Positions 5,338 to 23,785 of a stretch of DNA of 23,785 nt are shown here, one piece after another; within the stretch, counting starts at the first letter, position 1; each line of letters begins with the position of its first letter. The translations under genes were made by a program, and so were the position numbers. The DNA is taken from the IMG/VR virus record IMGVR_UViG_2734482546_000011; one strand, 5' to 3'. The stretch comes from a virus. Its lineage: Duplodnaviria > Heunggongvirae > Uroviricota > Caudoviricetes. The notes beneath the pieces were generated by a model that saw only the letters and a list, made by a program, of their open reading frames with translations, ran no database searches and was not told where the DNA came from.

Positions 5338-6637
5338 TCTCCCGCATATTGCCAGCATGGCTTTTAATGAGCCGCTGATGCTTGAACCCGCCTATGCGCG
5401 GGTTTTCTTTTGTGCGCTTGCAGGCCAGCTTGGGATCAGCTGCCTGACGGATGCAGTATCCGGCGACAGCCTGACTGCCGGAGAGGCACCCGCGGCGCTG
5501 GCGTTATCCGGTGATGATGACGGACCACGACAGGCCCGCAGTTATCAGGTAATGAACGGCATCGCCGTGCTGCCGGTGTCCGGCACGCTGGTCAGCCGGA
5601 CGCGGGCGCTGCAGCCGTACTCGGGGATGACCGGTTACAACGGCATTATCGCCCGTCTGCAACAGGCTGCCAGCGACCCGATGGTGGACGGCATTCTGCT
5701 CGATATGGACACACCGGGCGGAATGGTGGCGGGAGCATTTGACTGCGCTGACATCATCGCCCGTGTGCGTGACATAAAGCCGGTATGGGCGCTGGCCAAT
5801 GACATGAACTGCAGCGCAGGTCAGCTGCTTGCCAGTGCCGCCTCCCGGCGTCTGGTCACGCAGACCGCCCGGACAGGCTCCATCGGCGTCATGATGGCTC
5901 ACAGTAATTACGGCGCTGCACTGGAGAAACAGGGCGTGGAAATCACGCTGATTTACAGCGGCAGCCATAAGGTGGATGGCAACCCCTACAGCCATCTACC
6001 GGATGATGTCCGGGAAACATTGCAGTCCCGGATGGATGCAACCCGCCGGATGTTTGCACAGAAGGTGTCGGCATATACCGGCCTGTCCGTGCAGGCTGTG
6101 CTGGATACCGAGGCTGCAGTGTACAGCGGTCAGGAGGCCATTGATGCCGGACTGGCTGATGAACTTGTTAACAGTACCGATGCGATCACCGTCATGCGTG
6201 ATGCACTGGATGCACGTAAATCCCGTCTCTCAGGAGGGCGAATGACCAAAGAGACTCAATCAACAACTGTTTCAGCCACTGCTTCGCAGGCTGACGTTAC
6301 TGGCGTGGTGCAAGCGACGGAGGGCGAGAACGCCAGCGCGGCGCAGCCGGACGTGAACGCGCAGATCACCGCAGCGGTTGCGGCAGAAAACAGTCGCATT
6401 ATGGGGATCCTCAACTGTGAGGAGGCTCACGGACGCGAAGAACAGGCACGCGTGCTGGCCGAAACCCCCGGTATGACCGTGGAAACGGCCCGCCGTATTC
6501 TGGCCGCAGCACCACAGAGTGCACAGACGCGCAGTGACACTGCGCTGGATCGTCTGATGCAGGGGGCACCGGCACCGCTGGCTGCAGGTAACCCGGCATC
6601 TGATGCCGTTAACGATTTGCTGAACACACCAGTGTAA
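5318..6637 (+). CDS. C: Head maturation protease / scaffold gpC, 439 aa, GTG start
   Basis: Matches lambda gpC from (M)TAELRNLPHIASMAFNEPLMLEP.... GTG at 5318-5320 is preceded by a GAGGAGGAG Shine-Dalgarno. Overlaps the 3' end of B in another frame. The track ORF 5183-6637 extends upstream of the real start. Confidence 0.93.
6032..6637 (+). CDS. nu3: Scaffolding protein gpNu3, 201 aa, nested in-frame within the C-terminal part of C
   Basis: In-frame internal ATG at 6032 giving MDATRRMFAQKVSAY..., the same arrangement and length as lambda nu3. Confidence 0.85.
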   Translation: MDATRRMFAQKVSAYTGLSVQAVLDTEAAVYSGQEAIDAGLADELVNSTDAITVMRDALDARKSRLSGGRMTKETQSTTVSATASQADVTGVVQATEGENASAAQPDVNAQITAAVAAENSRIMGILNCEEAHGREEQARVLAETPGMTVETARRILAAAPQSAQTRSDTALDRLMQGAPAPLAAGNPASDAVNDLLNTPV

Positions 6638-16405: not shown

Positions 16406-19400
16406 ATGGGTAAAGGCAGCAGTAAGGGGCATACCCCGCGCGAAGCGAAGGACAACCTGAAGTCCACGCAGCTGCTGAGTGTGATCGATGCCATCAGCGA
16501 AGGGCCGGTTGAAGGTCCGGTGGATGGATTAAAAAGCGTGCTGCTGAACAGTACGCCGGTGCTGGACAATGAGGGGAATACCAACATCTCCGGCGTCACG
16601 GTGGTGTTCCGGGCAGGTGAGCAGGAGCAGTCACCGCCGGAGGGATTTGAATCCTCCGGCTCCGAGACGGTGCTGGGTACGGAAGTGAAATATGACACGC
16701 CGATCACCCGGACCATCACGTCGGCAAACATTGACCGACTGCGTTTTACCTTCGGTGTACAGGCACTGGTGGAAACCACCTCAAAGGGAGACAGGAATCC
16801 GTCTGAAGTTCGCCTGCTGGTTCAGATACAGCGTAACGGTGGCTGGGTGACGGAAAAAGACATCACCATTAAGGGCAAAACCACCTCGCAGTATCTGGCC
16901 TCGGTGGTGGTGGATAACCTGCCGCCGCGCCCGTTTAATATCCGGATGCGCAGAATGACGCCGGACAGCACCACAGACCAGCTGCAGAACAAAACGCTCT
17001 GGTCGTCATACACCGAAATCATCGATGTGAAACAGTGCTACCCGAACACGGCACTGGTCGGCGTACAGGTGGATTCGGAGCAGTTCGGCAGCCAGCAGGT
17101 GAGCCGTAATTATCATCTTCGCGGGCGCATTCTGCAGGTGCCGTCGAACTATAATCCGCAGACGCGGCAATACAGCGGTATCTGGGACGGAACGTTAAAA
17201 CCGGCATACAGCAACAACATGGCCTGGTGTCTGTGGGATATGCTGACCCATCCGCGCTATGGCATGGGGAAACGTCTTGGTGCGGCAGATGTGGATAAAT
17301 GGGCGCTGTATGTCATCGGCCAGTACTGTGACCAGTCGGTGCCGGACGGCTTTGGCAGCACGGAGCCGCGCATCACCTGTAATGCCTGGCTGACCACACA
17401 GCGCAAGGCGTGGGATGTGCTCAGTGATTTCTGCTCGGCGATGCGCTGTATGCCGGTATGGAACGGGCAGACGCTGACGTTCGTGCAGGACCGACAGTCG
17501 GATAAGGTGTGGGCCTATAACCGCAGTAATGTGGTGATGCCGGATGATGGCGCGCCGTTCCGCTACAGTTTCAGCGCCCTGAAAGACCGCCATAATGCCG
17601 TTGAGGTGAACTGGATTGACCCGGATAACGGCTGGGAGACGGCGACAGAGCTTGTGGAGGATACGCAGGCCATTGTCCGTTACGGTCGTAACGTCACGAA
17701 GATGGATGCCTTTGGCTGTACCAGCCGGGGGCAGGCACACCGCGCCGGGCTGTGGCTGATTAAAACGGAACTGCTGGAGACGCAGACCGTGGATTTCAGC
17801 GTGGGTGCTGAAGGGCTTCGTCATGTACCGGGCGATGTCATTGAAATCTGCGATGATGACTATGCCGGTATCCGCACCGGCGGGCGCGTGCTGGCGGTGA
17901 ACAGCCAGACCCGGACGCTGACGCTCGACCGTGAAATCACGCTGCCATCCTCCGGCACCACGCTGATAAGCCTGGTTGACGGGCAGGGGAATCCGGTCAG
18001 CGTGGAGGTCCAGTCCGTCACCGACGGCGTGAAGGTAAAAGTGAGCCGTGTTCCTGACGGTGTTGCTGAATACAGCGTGTGGGGGCTGAAGCTGCCGACG
18101 CTGCACCAGCGATTGTTCCGCTGCGTGAGNNNNNNNNNNNNNNNNNNNNNNNNNNNNNNNNNNNNNNNNNNNNNNNNNNNNNNNNNNNNNNNNNNNNNNN
18201 NNNNNNNNNNNNNNNNNNNNNNNNNNNNNNNNNNNNNNNNNNNNNNNNNNNNNNNNNNNNNNNNNNNNNNNNNNNNNNNNNNNNNNNNNNNNNNNNNNNN
18301 NNNNNNNNNNNNNNNNNNNNNNNNNNNNNNNNNNNNNNNNNNNNNNNNNNNNNNNNNNNNNNNNNNNNNNNNNNNNNNNGCTGACAGTCCGGGCAGTAAA
18401 TGCGTGGGGGCAGCAGGGCGATCCGGCGTCGGTATCGTTCCGGATTGCCGCACCGGCAGCGCTGTCGCGGATTGAGCTGACGCCGGGCTATTTTCAGATA
18501 ACCGCCACGCCGCATCTTGCGGTTTATGATCCGACGGTACAGTTTGAGTTCTGGTTCTCGGAAAAGCGGATTGCGGATATCAGGCAGGTTGAAACCACAG
18601 CACGCTATCTTGGCACGGCGCTGTACTGGATAGCCGCCAGTATCAATATCAAACCGGGCCATGATTATTACTTTTATATCCGCAGTGTGAACACCGTTGG
18701 CAAATCGGCATTCGTGGAGGCTGTTGGTCAGCCGAGTGATGATGCATCCGGTTATCTGGATTTTTTCAAAGGCGAGATAGGGAAAACCCATCTGGCTCAG
18801 GAGCTGTGGACGCAGATTGATAACGGTCAGCTTGCGCCTGACCTGGCTGAAATCAGGACGTCCATTACGGATGTCAGCAATGAAATCACGCAGACCGTCA
18901 ATAAGAAACTGGAAGACCAGAGTGCGGCAATTCAGCAGATACAGAAGGTTCAGGTTGATACAAATAATAACCTGAACAGCATGTGGGCTGTGAAGCTGCA
19001 GCAGATGCAGGACGGACGCCTTTATATCGCGGGTATTGGTGCCGGTATTGAGAACACCCCTGACGGCATGCAGAGTCAGGTGCTGCTGGCGGCGGACAGG
19101 ATTGCGATGGTTAATCCTGCGAATGGCAACACAAAACCGATGTTTGTTGGTCAGGGCGATCAGATATTCATGAACGACGTGTTCCTGAAACGCCTGACGG
19201 CCCCCACCATTACCAGCGGTGGAAATCCATCGGCATTTTCCCTGACTCCGGACGGAAAGCTGACCGCTAAAAATGCGGATATCAGTGGCAGTGTGAATGC
19301 GAACGCCGGGACGCTCAACAATGTCACGGTAAATGAAAACTGTACGATTAAGGGCATGCTGGAGGCGACTCAGGTCAGAGGTGACTTCGTTAAAGCTGTA

Positions 19401-19811
19401 TCCAAATCATTTCCGAAACAGGCTGGTACGTGGGGTAACACGGAAACACCAAACGGGACGGTTACAGTCACCATAAGCGATGATCATAACTTTGACCGCC
19501 AGATTATTATTCCGCCCATTATTTTTAACGGTATAGCGTATGACGATCCGGGGAGCGGAAATAACCCAGGAGGCACGCGATACACGGGTTATGGTTTTGA
19601 AGTTCGCAAAAACGGCGTATTAATCGCATCCAGAGAAACTAAAGGTGCCATTCCCGGTAGTTACAGTGCAGTTATTGATATGCCTAGTGGTGGTGGTAGC
19701 GTCACTCTGGAGTTTAAGATTTTCCAGAAAGGCAATCAGGGGGCAGGCAATATCACCGACTGTACGGTGATTGTGACCAAAAAAGCGGCTTCCGGCATCA
19801 GTATTCGTTGA
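16406..19811 (+). CDS. J: Central tail fibre / tail tip attachment protein gpJ (host specificity protein), interrupted by an N run at 18130-18369
   Basis: N-terminal roughly 575 aa and the segment after the gap (…[25 protein letters not shown]…[27 protein letters not shown]) match lambda J. Stop TGA at 19809-19811. Frame before the gap (start 16406) and frame after it (ending at 19811) differ, so the true length of the gap is not a multiple of 3 as represented. Confidence 0.88.
18130..18369. other. Run of 240 N (unknown or masked sequence) inside J
   Basis: Literal n characters in the sequence. Confidence 1.
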
Positions 19812-19833: not shown

Positions 19834-19857
19834 GGCGTCAGGAATGACGCCTTTTTT
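19834..19857 (+). terminator. Rho-independent terminator downstream of J
   Basis: GGCGTCA-GGAA-TGACGCC hairpin followed by TTTTTT, 23 nt after the J stop. Confidence 0.75.
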
Positions 19858-19881: not shown

Positions 19882-20762
19882 ATGCGTAAAGTTTGTGCAG
19901 CCATTTTGTCCGCAGCCATTTGCCTGGCCGTATCCGGTGCGCCTGCATGGGCGTCTGAACATCAGTCCACGCTGAGCGCGGGGTATCTTCATGCCCGGAC
20001 CAACGTTCCCGGCAGTGATGATCTGAACGGGATTAACGTGAAATACCGTTATGAGTTTACGGATACGCTGGGGCTGGTGACGTCATTCAGCTATGCAGGA
20101 GACAAGAATCGCCAGCTGACCCGTTACAGCGATACCCGCTGGCATGAAGATTCCGTGCGTAACCGCTGGTTCAGCGTGATGGCGGGGCCGTCTGTGCGCG
20201 TGAATGAATGGTTCAGCGCGTATGCGATGGCGGGTGTGGCTTACAGCCGTGTGTCGACTTTCTCCGGGGATTATCTCCGCGTAACTGACAACAAGGGGAA
20301 AACGCACGACGTGCTGACCGGAAGTGATGACGGTCGCCACAGCAACACGTCTCTGGCGTGGGGAGCTGGCGTGCAGTTTAACCCGACCGAATCCGTGGCC
20401 ATTGATATTGCTTATGAAGGCTCNNNNNNNNNNNNNNNNNNNNNNNNNNNNNNNNNNNNNNNNNNNNNNNNNNNNNNNNNNNNNNNNNNNNNNNNNNNNN
20501 NNNNNNNNNNNNNNNNNNNNNNNNNNNNNNNNNNNNNNNNNNNNNNNNNNNNNNNNNNNNNNNNNNNNNNNNNNNNNNNNNNNNNNNNNNNNNNNNNNNN
20601 NNNNNNNNNNNNNNNNNNNNNNNNNNNNNNNNNNNNNNNNNNNNNNNNNNNNNNNNNNNNNNNNNNNNNNNNNNNNNNNNNNNNNNNNNNNNNNNNNNNN
20701 NNNNNNNNNNNNNNNNNNNNNNNNNNNNNNNNNNNNNNNNNNNNNTCGGTTATAAATTCTGA
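19882..20762 (+). CDS. lom: Outer-membrane protein Lom (Ail/Lom/OmpX family beta-barrel; lysogenic-conversion moron), 3' part interrupted by an N run
   Basis: Signal peptide MRKVCAAILSAAICLAVSGAPAWA and the following 180 aa match lambda Lom. After the N run the sequence GGT TAT AAA TTC TGA (GYKF stop) matches the Lom C-terminus but in a different frame from the 5' part. GAGAGG Shine-Dalgarno at 19871-19876. Confidence 0.85.
20424..20745. other. Run of 322 N inside the 3' part of lom
   Basis: Literal n characters. Confidence 1.
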
Positions 20763-20788: not shown

Positions 20789-20816
20789 AGCCCGCCGGTT
20801 CAGGCGGGCTTTTTTG
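20789..20816 (+). terminator. Rho-independent terminator downstream of lom
   Basis: AGCCCGCC-GGTTCA-GGCGGGCT hairpin followed by TTTTTT, about 27 nt after the lom stop. Confidence 0.8.
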
Positions 20817-20826
20817 TGGGGTGAAT

Positions 20827-23785
20827 ATGGCAGTAAAGATTTCAGGTGTACTGAAAGACGGCACAGGAAAACCGGTACAGAACTGCACAATCCAGCTGAA
20901 AGCAAAACGTAACAGCACCACGGTGGTGGTGAACACGCTGGCCTCAGAAAATCCGGATGAAGCCGGGCGTTACAGCATGGACGTTGAGTACGGTCAGTAC
21001 AGCGTTATTCTGTTGGTGGAAGGATTCCCGCCGTCACATGCCGGGACCATCACCGTGTATGAAGATTCCCGACCCGGTACGCTGAATGATTTTCTCGGTG
21101 CCATGACGGAGGATGATGCCCGTCCGGAGGCTCTGCGCCGTTTTGAACTGATGGTGGAAGAGGTGGCGCGTAACGCGTCCGCGGTGGCACAGAACACGGC
21201 AGCCGCGAAGAAGTCAGCCAGTGATGCCGGCACATCTGCCCGTGAGGCGGCAACCCATGCGACTGATGCTGCAGGCTCAGCGCGTGCAGCCAGCACGTCA
21301 GCCGGACAGGCCGCGACTTCGGCTCAGGAGGCGTCTTCCAGCGCAGGAACGGCATCAACAAAGGCCACTGAAGCATCAAAAAGTGCTGCCGCTGCAGAGT
21401 CCTCAAAAAGCGCGGCGGCCACCAGTGCCGGTGCGGCGAAAACGTCAGAAACGAATGCTGCAGCGTCACAAAAATCAGCAGCCACTTCTGCATCCACTGC
21501 GACAACGAAAGCGTCAGAAGCCGCCACTTCAGCCAGAGATGCGGCGGCCTCCAAAGAGGCGGCAAAATCATCAGAAACGAACGCCTCCACAAGCGCCAGC
21601 AGTGCAGCCTCCTCGGCAACGGCGGCAGGAAATTCCGTGAAGGCGGCAAAAACGTCCGAGACGAATGCTAAGTCTTCTGAAACGGCAGCGGAACAGAGCG
21701 CCTCAGCTGCGGCAGACTCTGAGACAGCAGCTGCATCATCGGCCCGTGAGGCGTCCATTAAGGCAGAGGAGGCAGCAGTCAGTGCCACCGCCGCCGGAAA
21801 ATCGGCAGAAAGCGCCGCATCATCCGCTTCAACAGCCACAACGAAGGCTGGCGAAGCCACTGAACAGGCCAGCGCAGCAGCGAGGTCTGCTTCCGCAGCG
21901 AAGACATCCGAAACGAACGCGAAAGCGTCGGAAACCAGCGCAGAATCCTCAAAAACGGCTGCCGCATCGTCCGCCAGTTCGGCGGCGTCATCGGCATCAT
22001 CTGCGTCTGCTTCAAAAGATGAGGCGACCAGACAGGCGTCAGCAGCGAGGGGCAGCGCCACGACGGCATCCACGAAGGCGACAGAGGCTGCTGGCAGTGC
22101 GGCAGCGGCNNNNNNNNNNNNNNNNNNNNNNNNNNNNNNNNNNNNNNNNNNNNNNNNNNNNNNNNNNNNNNNNNNNNNNNNNNNNNNNNNNNNNNNNNNN
22201 NNNNNNNNNNNNNNNNNNNNNNNNNNNNNNNNNNNNNNNNNNNNNNNNNNNNNNNNNNNNNNNNNNNNNNNNNNNNNNNNNNNNNNNNNNNNNNNNNNNN
22301 NNNNNNNNNNNNNNNNNNNNNNNNNNNNNNNNNNNNNNNNNNNNNNNNNNNNNNNNNNNAGTTCAGCTCAGCAGTGCGACTAACAGCACTTCCGAGTCAC
22401 AGGCGGCAACGCCAAAAGCCGTTAAGGCCGCGTATGACCTGGCTAACGGGAAATACACCGCACAGGACGCTACGACAGCACAAAAAGGAATTGTCCAGCT
22501 CAGTAGTGCAACCAACAGCACATCTGAAACGCTTGCTGCGACACCGAAAGCAGTGAAAGCAGCTAATGACAATGCGAATGGTCGGGTACCTTCTGCCCGT
22601 AAGGTGAATGGTAAGGCGCTTTCAGCGGATATAACACTGACGCCGAAAGATATTGGTACGCTTAACTCAACAACAATGTCATTCAGCGGTGGTGCTGGTT
22701 GGTTCAAATTAGCAACGGTAACCATGCCACAGGCGAGTTCTGTTGTTTCAATTACGTTGATTGGTGGCGCTGGATTTAACGTGGGGTCACCTCAACAGGC
22801 AGGTATATCTGAACTTGTTTTACGTGCAGGTAATGGTAATCCGAAGGGGATTACTGGTGCTTTATGGCAGCGCACATTGACAGGGTTTACAAATTTTGCC
22901 TGGGTTAATACATCTGGTGATACTTACGATATTTACGTTGCAATCGGAAATTATGCGACTGGTGTAAATATTCAATGGGATTATACCAGTAATGCCAGCG
23001 TGACGATTCATACGTCACCAGCATATTCTGCTAATAAGCCGGAAGGGTTAACGGACGGTACAGTTTATTCACTCTATACGCCATCAGAGCAGTTTTATCC
23101 GCCTGGCGCACCAATCCCGTGGCCATCAGATACCGTTCCGTCTGGCTATGCCCTGATGCAGGGGCAGGCTTTTGACAAATCTGCATACCCGAAACTTGCA
23201 GCGGCTTATCCGTCAGGCGTGATCCCTGATATGCGTGGCTGGACGATTAAGGGCAAACCTGCCAGTGGTCGGGCCGTATTGTCTCAGGAACAGGACGGCA
23301 TTAAATCGCATACCCACAGCGCCAGCGCATCCAGTACGGATTTGGGGACGAAAACCACATCGTCGTTTGATTACGGCACTAAATCCACGAATAACACTGG
23401 TGCGCATACCCATAGTTTAAGTGGCAGCACGAATGCAGCTGGTAATCACAGCCATAGAGATGGCCGTCGATTTAACCCCAGTGTTTTTAAAGATACTTAT
23501 CAATATGGTTATACAAGCTCAGGTCAAAATACCTGGGGTGTACAAGGCTCAGTAGGTATGTCTACGGGGTGGTTAGCGAATACCAGTATAGATGGTAATC
23601 ATAGCCATTCACTGTCCGGCACAGCAGCATCTGCAGGTGCACACGCGCATACTGTCGGTATTGGTGCTCATACGCACTCCGTTGCGATTGGTTCACATGG
23701 ACACACCATCACCGTTAACGCTGCTGGTAACGCGGAAAACACCGTCAAAAACATCGCATTTAACTATATTGTGAGGCTTGCATAA
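20827..23785 (+). CDS. stf: Side tail fibre protein Stf, interrupted by an N run at 22110-22359; stop TAA at the window end
   Basis: N-terminus [37 protein letters not shown]... matches lambda Stf. Long Ala/Ser/Thr-rich shaft with recurring AAKTSETNA units. After the gap, in another frame, a duplicated [22 protein letters not shown] fibre motif and a C-terminal region with HxH repeats ending [11 protein letters not shown]. The expected tfa gene would lie beyond the window. Confidence 0.85.
22110..22359. other. Run of 250 N inside stf
   Basis: Literal n characters. Confidence 1.

Follow-up and report, generated by a model that had tools for sequence, protein, structure and literature searches.

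The window analysed here, 23,785 nt of DNA from a tailed virus (IMG/VR record IMGVR_UViG_2734482546_000011), closes with the gene order J-lom-stf, the terminal part of the late tail operon. The last of these genes raises the question of what kind of fibre it encodes, and whether its AT-rich distal kilobase was exchanged as one unit. Taken as a whole, the best explanation is with high probability a lambda-type side tail fibre gene (stf) of an E. coli prophage. The AT-rich kilobase is composed of two separately exchanged cassettes within conserved joints and not of a single unit.

Gene organization and neighbourhood

The gene starts with an ATG at 20827 and ends with a TAA stop at 23783-23785, the last bases of the window; it and the features described below are on the plus strand. 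The Pfam domains of the product are phage_tail_N, Phage_fiber_2 (twice), Collar and Phage_fiber. The modules begin with the N-terminal domain of lambda Stf and an Ala/Ser/Thr shaft; two or more Phage_fiber_2 repeats, the middle module, the collar and the needle follow. The gene occupies the same position after J and lom as stf of Ur-lambda, which encodes a fibre of 774 aa together with Tfa. An intrinsic-terminator-like hairpin followed by a T-run (20789..20816; stem of 8 pairs, 7 of them G-C, then TTTTTTG) is present downstream of lom, 10 nt before the ATG of stf; by analogy with lambda, anti-terminated late transcripts presumably extend past it. An Rfam scan of the whole window gave no match.

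The tfa gene itself would lie beyond the window. In alleles at least 99% identical, tfaQ is located directly 3' of stf, the final A of the TAA doubling as the A of the tfa ATG, and is followed by pinQ; near-identical stf copies in complete genomes are located at the Qin site. The tfaQ product of these relatives shares 95% identity with lambda Tfa and 29% with the T4 chaperone gp38 (E 6e-19). The presence of pinQ prompted a check for a pin-type invertible tail-fibre switch, as known from Mu (Gin/G), P1 (Cin/C) and e14 (Pin/P). This possibility was rejected, as the relatives carry a single tfa and the inverted repeats found were weak (14-21 nt, 76-88% complementary) and not convincing.

N-terminal domain and proximal rod

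The N-terminal domain (aa 1-134; 20827..21228), expected to attach the fibre to the tail, matches the full-length Pfam model PF08400 (phage_tail_N) with an E-value of 3.2e-72 and hardly differs from residues 1-100 of lambda Stf when the two are aligned. In Ur-lambda, Stf residues 1-91 form a collar around the tail (PMC12617516). The proximal rod follows at 21133..22109 (aa 103-427 visible, running on into a masked gap) with a continuous AxxAxxS heptad register. N-terminal domain and coiled-coil region together are approximately 87% identical to Ur-lambda at the DNA level, and the rod carries an insertion of exactly 105 aa (15 heptads) relative to lambda.

The first-pass annotation had described the shaft as an Ala/Ser/Thr-rich low-complexity region with AAKTSETNA-type units. 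The composition was borne out (residues 111-427 contain 37% Ala, 23% Ser and 12% Thr), as were the units, of which four of the form AAK(T/S)SETNA are present at aa 203, 245, 273 and 357. "Low-complexity" alone is an insufficient description, since the pattern is that of a heptad coiled coil. The spacings between the units (42, 28 and 84 aa) are each a multiple of 14, and the hydrophobic residues show a 3.5/7-residue periodicity with a normalised spectral power of about 41 at period 3.5, a value matched in none of 2000 shuffles. The near-identical relative L002 keeps the AxxAxxS register without a break over 51 heptads (aa 103-459), with Ala at position d in 47 and Ser at position g in 36 of the 51. 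These features suggest a coiled-coil fold for the rod. The register agrees with the model of Ur-lambda Stf, which places a coiled coil proximally (residues 102-393) and includes a receptor-binding domain of gp37 type (PMC12617516), and this agreement was counted in favour of the identification as a side tail fibre. A reading of the shaft as a DNA tandem repeat was rejected: Tandem Repeats Finder reported just two trivial 9-nt arrays, and the repetition is found at the level of the protein heptad.

Masked gap and integrity of the gene

The rod is interrupted in the window by a run of 250 N (22110..22359), masked or unassembled sequence whose length is without meaning. If the 250 nt are taken literally, the frames 5' (from 20827) and 3' (from 22361) of the run differ by one base, which would fit a decayed pseudogene like that of laboratory lambda PaPa, the classic case (PMC12617516), with a frameshift inside the gap splitting the gene and no fibre being made. 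Split stf genes also occur in several isolated relatives, with three CDS in PhiR30_1 and two in ev099. Such decay is nevertheless very improbable here. All three N-runs of the window disrupt the frame, and in place of those in J and lom the relatives have 342 nt and 41 nt; since the length of these runs does not reflect the sequence they replace, the shift of frame at the gap in stf carries no information on intactness and was dropped as an indication of a PaPa-like frameshift. In complete genomes, alleles of 99% identity or more read through the corresponding position in frame, with 252 nt and three repeat copies in L002 and 120 nt and two repeat copies in L003. No stop codon interrupts the visible parts on either side of the gap.

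Phage_fiber_2 repeats, middle module and collar

The sequence resumes with Phage_fiber_2 repeats of a 44-aa unit, two or more in number (22361..22594), which match PF03406 in two stretches (E 4.6e-35) and also the tail fibre protein S of phage Mu (5yvq, 8ju3). The two visible copies, at 22361-22449 and 22493-22581, each match the Pfam domain; this type of gene has two or three copies, lambda one. The duplicated motif had been noted as similar in protein and diverged in DNA, and over the first 24 codons the copies are indeed 92% identical in protein and 72% in DNA, with different codons used at 16 of the 22 identical residues. Its proposed role as a recombination linker also gained support, as in all eight lambdoid phages compared DNA similarity stops where the last Phage_fiber_2 repeat ends (22570-22575). 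The repeats form the left recombination joint and would also provide a hinge.

The middle module (22576..23090), the most AT-rich long segment, replaces lambda residues ~395-530. It is probably a beta-sandwich according to a structure model of moderate confidence (pLDDT 63); its sequence gave no matches in PDB or Pfam. A large protein database search returned short partial proteins only (≤ 308 aa), which limited the alignment depth. The collar domain (23105..23248; PF07484, E 4.2e-12), which constitutes the right recombination joint, was aligned to the collar of the T4 gp37 tip structure 2XGF, in which the chain matches from residue 15.

Needle and head

The last 243 aa of Stf match the crystallised T4 gp37 tip (PDB 2XGF) with 65% amino acid identity and an E-value of 7e-85. 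Layout (collar, needle, head) and C-terminus are conserved between the two, and the conserved parts are only 67-78% identical in DNA; the remainder of the protein is of lambda type, different from gp37. Seven HxH boxes were found, at nt 23309, 23405, 23447, 23600, 23642, 23669 and 23696. They contain 14 of the 15 His residues of the distal 474 aa, and none of 20000 shuffles had seven or more boxes. The first limb of the needle, from collar to head (23309..23455), contains boxes 1-3 (HTH 23309, HTH 23405, HSH 23447), which align with T4 gp37 H883/885, H915/917 and H929/931. The second limb (23600..23785) runs from the head through boxes 4-7; it ends with the conserved C-terminal residues (...[11 protein letters not shown]) and the TAA. 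The resemblance to gp37-type tips claimed from the boxes thus holds for all seven, which pair one to one with T4 H883, 915, 929, 966, 980, 989 and 998. Seven iron ions are reported for the T4 gp37 tip (PMC11705849); from the conserved histidines, the boxes of Stf may likewise coordinate iron or another metal.

Lambda Stf has eight HxH boxes and a SFDYGTKTTG duplication that is not present here. The two proteins have the Phage_fiber_2 motif, collar and HxH needle in common, and their last 26 aa are identical (...[28 protein letters not shown]). The distal regions as a whole are not the same: tip protein identity is 72%, the head loops are unrelated, and the middle module has no lambda counterpart.

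Between HxH boxes 3 and 4 lies the head cassette (23441..23608; 168 nt). It is bounded by two GNHSH boxes that form 19-nt direct repeats and encodes a variable, putatively receptor-binding loop of 48 aa (23456-23599); the loop at the equivalent place has 45 aa in lambda and 34 aa in T4, the latter without sequence similarity. T4 receptor mutations at residues 938-955 (PMC5221442) map onto the position of this loop. Of 5426 complete E. coli genomes, 1142 carry the cassette.

Base composition and mosaic structure

The distal 1.1 kb had been described as noticeably AT-rich from 22600. AT-richness was confirmed (GC 0.479 for 22592-23782 versus 0.555 for the rest of the window), but the drop is patchy and does not form a single block. 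The GC of the shaft (0.61) is high because of its Ala codons, so that GC3 is the fairer measure. GC3 is 0.60 in the N-terminal domain, 0.51 in the shaft, 0.48 in the repeats, 0.35 in the middle module, 0.48 in the collar and 0.42 in needle plus head, with 0.27 in the head loop. In the other late genes, 155-codon windows have a mean GC3 of 0.654 (sd 0.060, minimum 0.465); the middle module and the head loop are below every such window elsewhere in the operon.

A DNA comparison with eight lambdoid phages was used to map breakpoints, which recur at 22575, 23091-23105, 23424 and 23590-23648; similarity to all eight phages resumes at the collar (23091-23105). Six phages (PhiR42_1, PhiR26_1, PhiR68_2, mEp460, Kati and PhiR34_1) are 94-96% identical in N-terminal domain and rod and 98% identical in collar, needle and head, including the same head cassette, and carry a different, longer middle module at 22576-23090. 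A literature search on the PhiR phages found no paper. K-12 Rac StfR (b1372) has the same downstream tfa-pin arrangement as the relatives of the window. Its collar/needle protein is identical outside the head cassette except for one conservative substitution after HxH box 2 (HTHSVS in StfR, HTHSLS here), whereas its head cassette and middle module are both unrelated. The head cassette also occurs in gp37 of P896 (Gaprivervirus, T-even), where it is 96% identical in DNA over the 168 nt, 98% at third positions and 92% in loop protein; in the needle flanks third-position identity is 34-52%. Everything else in the P896 protein is T-even gp37, with extra HxH and SFDYGTK repeats, and at the same location lambda, T4 and K-12 StfR have unrelated sequence. 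Horizontal exchange of the tip, as proposed in the first-pass annotation, is upheld by this nearly identical cassette within diverged flanks and by the StfR frame with its unrelated head.

The AT-richness might instead stem from amino acid content or from local selection on codons, the gene being inherited vertically, and the contrast is in part driven by amino acids, as the shaft illustrates (GC 0.61, GC3 0.51). This reading is already contradicted and has next to no probability. GC3, which is largely independent of amino acid content, falls in precisely the two cassettes, these are exactly the segments that differ between phages otherwise 94-98% identical, and one of them is shared with a T-even gene almost without change at third positions.

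Predicted function and significance

By homology, the product would, if expressed, form a trimeric side tail fibre whose N-terminal domain docks onto the tail tip and whose long alanine-zipper coiled coil constitutes the proximal rod. The Phage_fiber_2 repeats would act as a hinge, followed by the beta-sandwich module, the collar and a six-stranded needle, in which the seven HxH pairs per chain may hold seven metal ions on the axis of the trimer, by analogy with T4 gp37. The loop between boxes 3 and 4 would be the terminal head that touches a cell-surface receptor, and this contact would allow fast reversible adsorption before that of J. The Tfa chaperone, presumably encoded just downstream, would be required for folding. 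Trimeric Stf fibres on the virion and faster adsorption are established for Ur-lambda (PMC12617516). That Stf is a second host-range determinant is suggested by homology and by published work on the Stf of lambda and Gifsy-1 (PMC12617516, PMC12312913).

The tip may still be specific for OmpC like lambda Stf and T4 gp37, in which case it would add no host range and only speed adsorption to the same porin. The lambda-like collar, needle frame and Tfa partner fit such a retention, and both characterised relatives use OmpC (PMC12617516, PMC5221442). It is nevertheless rather unlikely: the 48-aa head loop cannot be aligned with the loops of lambda, T4 or StfR, the specificity mutations of T4 fall in this loop, and the Stf of Gifsy-1 binds an LPS core sugar instead (PMC12312913). 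A wider reading is put forward tentatively, at somewhat less than even probability for all its parts jointly. It holds that 23441-23608 is a currently mobile specificity cassette, passing between the prophage pool and virulent T-even phages via the GNHSH repeats; that it specifies a receptor other than the OmpC bound by the heads of lambda and T4; that its T-even-like GC3 of 0.27 points to import from virulent phages; and that the beta-sandwich module could add a carbohydrate-binding contact.

Three conserved joints, namely the collar, the GNHSH boxes and the Phage_fiber_2 repeat, are the sites of the recombination by which this gene evolves; middle module and head cassette are swapped independently, also across the boundary between temperate and virulent T-even phages. 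The 3' ends of T4 genes 37 and 38 have been ascribed to exchange with lambda (PMC3157838), and engineered Stf chimeras are functional (PMC11338833). The elements involved have long been established: the side tail fibres of lambdoid phages, their relationship to the T4 gp37 tip, the needle whose HxH boxes bind iron, and exchange at motifs that are conserved. Sequence and annotation of this stf allele are already available from isolated phages and from hundreds of E. coli genomes. The locus therefore has little weight as a discovery, and its practical value is that of a fine map of two exchangeable cassettes with sharp, recurrent joints. The allele described here, K-12 StfR, lambda and P896 provide natural frames with different heads, and the cassette map is directly usable to engineer the host range of lambda-based delivery particles. 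The locus is also a clean natural case in which temperate and virulent phages have exchanged an adhesin.

Gene context and reading frame

The window carries the late operon of a lambda-like phage, with the gene order nu1 to J, lom, stf. The side tail fibre gene stf occupies the + strand from its ATG at 20827 to a TAA at 23783-23785, the final bases of the window. At ≥99% identity it is present in many complete Escherichia coli genomes; in the two genomes examined, the allele resides in a prophage at the Qin site, adjoining tfaQ, pinQ, ydfK, ynfT and a truncated ydfJ. The top isolated-phage match is PhiR42_1, where the annotation reads "side tail fibre protein Stf". In relatives tfaQ is the next gene, overlapping the stf stop codon (product 95% identical to lambda Tfa, 29% to T4 gp38), and on this basis a chaperone gene should lie directly beyond the window's end. 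A gene for a serine invertase of the Pin family (pinQ, pinR) stands tail-to-tail after tfa in relatives and in K-12 Rac (L002 7701-8291, L014 6085-6675, respectively). A check for an invertible segment revealed a single tfa, and none of the inverted repeats was convincing as a crossover site; the arrangement has the look of what is left of an invertible fibre switch.

A strong terminator-like hairpin (20789-20810; 20789-20816 including downstream bases) lies 10 bases 5' of the stf ATG. A second, bidirectional one at 19834-19851 separates J from lom; lom is thus flanked by hairpins, which fits its separate expression in lysogens together with read-through by late transcripts. The final 475 amino acids of J (18384-19811) are 59% identical to lambda J and the last ~130 are strongly diverged; the central fibre probably makes no use of lambda's LamB-binding domain. 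Minus-strand ORFs of 199 and 249 amino acids lie opposite the shaft (21050-22073), are the by-product to be expected of periodic GCN-rich coding, and resemble orf206b, annotated opposite stf in the lambda record.

N-runs interrupt J (18130-18379), lom (20424-20745) and stf (22110-22359). The stf frames on either side of the 250-N run are 1 base apart if the run length is taken literally. This offset was considered as a sign of a frameshift in stf and set aside as uninformative, as the runs in J and lom also break frame: where J has 250 Ns, three relatives have 342 nt, and the 322 Ns in lom stand for 41 nt in relatives. In two alleles ≥99% identical to the window's, from complete E. coli genomes, the stf run corresponds to 252 nt (L002) and 120 nt (L003), in frame in both. 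All three runs are untrue to length and each breaks its gene's frame; ORF calls across them are artefacts, and the frame change in stf is no evidence of a frameshift. Separately, stf is split into 2 or 3 CDS in the isolated relatives PhiR30_1 (L007 868-4261) and ev099 (L009 2233-4269); side-fibre loss, as in lambda PaPa, seems recurrent.

N-terminal domain, rod and repeats

Stf matches the Pfam families phage_tail_N (residues 1-134, E 3e-72), Phage_fiber_2 (twice), Collar and Phage_fiber, the last being a 14-residue His-box repeat. Ala makes up 37% of the shaft, Ser 23% and Thr 12%, and AAK(T/S)SETNA units stand at residues 203, 245, 273 and 357, which bears out the Ala/Ser/Thr-rich shaft with recurring units of the first-pass annotation. 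The shaft is more than generic low-complexity sequence: its hydrophobic residues keep a period of exactly 3.5/7, matched by 0 of 2000 shuffles, in an unbroken heptad register, which also makes the AAKTSETNA spacings multiples of 14. In L002 the AxxAxxS pattern forms 51 consecutive heptads (residues 103-459) whose register never shifts, with Ala at position d in 47 and Ser at position g in 36. The lambda Stf rod has 36 heptads, the difference being a single insertion of exactly 105 residues (15 heptads). Such a rod is in line with the model published for the Ur-lambda fibre, in which residues 1-91 form a collar and 102-393 the proximal coiled coil, with a hinge next and then a distal part resembling gp37 (PMC12617516).

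Beyond the gap, the Phage_fiber_2 copies at 22361-22449 and 22493-22581 share 92% of their residues but 72% of their nucleotides over the 24 codons compared, with different codons at 16 of 22 conserved residues, bearing out the reported tandem motif alike in protein and diverged in DNA. L002 and L003 (alleles >99% identical) differ by one 132-nt (44-residue) unit, with three copies in the former and two in the latter (5351-5734 and 5351-5602); the window therefore has at least two visible copies, and a third may be hidden. This copy-number polymorphism is the result of unequal recombination.

Putative receptor-binding tip

The last 243 residues of Stf match the crystal structure of the T4 gp37 tip (2XGF) with E 7e-85; at the protein level the tip is 65% identical to that of T4 and 72% to that of lambda. 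Seven HxH boxes account for 14 of the 15 distal His residues (at least seven boxes in 0 of 20000 shuffles), and in the alignment each of the seven has its own counterpart in T4, at H883, 915, 929, 966, 980, 989 and 998, so the proposed likeness to the gp37 tip stands. Lambda Stf has eight boxes. In T4 gp37 the HxH motifs bind seven iron ions, according to PMC11705849. Between boxes 3 and 4, a loop of 48 residues (23456-23599, + strand) occupies the position of the T4 head domain, where mutations at residues 938-955 alter OmpC or LPS recognition (PMC5221442); it is unalignable with the T4 (34 residues) or lambda (45 residues) loop. The gp37 of the T-even phage P896 (L013 696-3884) has extra needle repeats, with more HxH boxes and, as in lambda, a duplicated SFDYGTK unit; needle length is variable by whole repeat units.

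Base composition and cassette exchange

Composition was followed as GC3, because Ala codons inflate the GC of the shaft. From the N-domain (0.60) GC3 falls through the shaft (0.51) and the repeats (0.48) to 0.35 in the middle module (22576-23090); the collar (23105-23248) has 0.48, needle and head together 0.42, and the head loop 0.27. In 155-codon windows of the remaining late genes the mean is 0.654 (sd 0.060), with none below 0.465, and distal stf is indeed AT-rich against the rest of the operon. The head loop value equals that of the entire P896 gp37.

N-domain and rod show 87-96% DNA identity to eight lambdoid phages. In all eight, similarity breaks off at 22570-22575, where the last Phage_fiber_2 repeat finishes, and is back at 23091-23105, the collar start; in six it is lost again at 23382-23424, 3' of HxH box 2, and returns at 23590-23648. 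The shared breakpoints therefore define two cassettes, middle module and head, between conserved joints. The proposed exchange of the AT-rich distal kilobase is thus supported, though it involves two cassettes and not one unit. The head cassette is found in seven lambdoid phages, in 1142 of 5426 complete E. coli genomes and, unexpectedly, in P896 gp37: over 23441-23608 (168 nt, spanning both GNHSH boxes, which are 19-nt direct repeats) DNA identity to P896 is 96%. Third-position identity is 98% in the loop but drops to 34% for the collar and 52% for the C-terminal limb. In K-12 Rac StfR, collar and needle frame are protein-identical to the window save for a single residue, conservatively replaced, just past HxH box 2, whereas the head cassette is unrelated. 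The pattern is that described for T-even adhesins, in which conserved motifs serve as the sites of recombination (Tetart et al. 1998, cited in PMC3157838), and it fits the accepted account of T4 genes 37 and 38, whose 3' ends are held to come from an exchange with lambda (PMC3157838).

Proposed function

By homology Stf would be a trimer, its N-domain docking on the tail tip and its alanine-zipper rod holding the distal half outward. Axial metal ions would be expected to staple the needle, and the head would touch a surface receptor, giving fast reversible adsorption before J binds its own receptor. A role for Stf alongside J is published for Ur-lambda (PMC12617516) and Gifsy-1 (PMC12312913), and engineered Stf chimeras are functional, so the modularity is real (PMC11338833). 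The first-pass observation is confirmed as a whole, all four of its component observations holding, and its interpretation is supported with refined details. The allele is a common one that earlier records already annotate, and stf shows no departure from known biology; mildly notable is a head cassette so sharply bounded and nearly identical to that of a virulent T-even phage.
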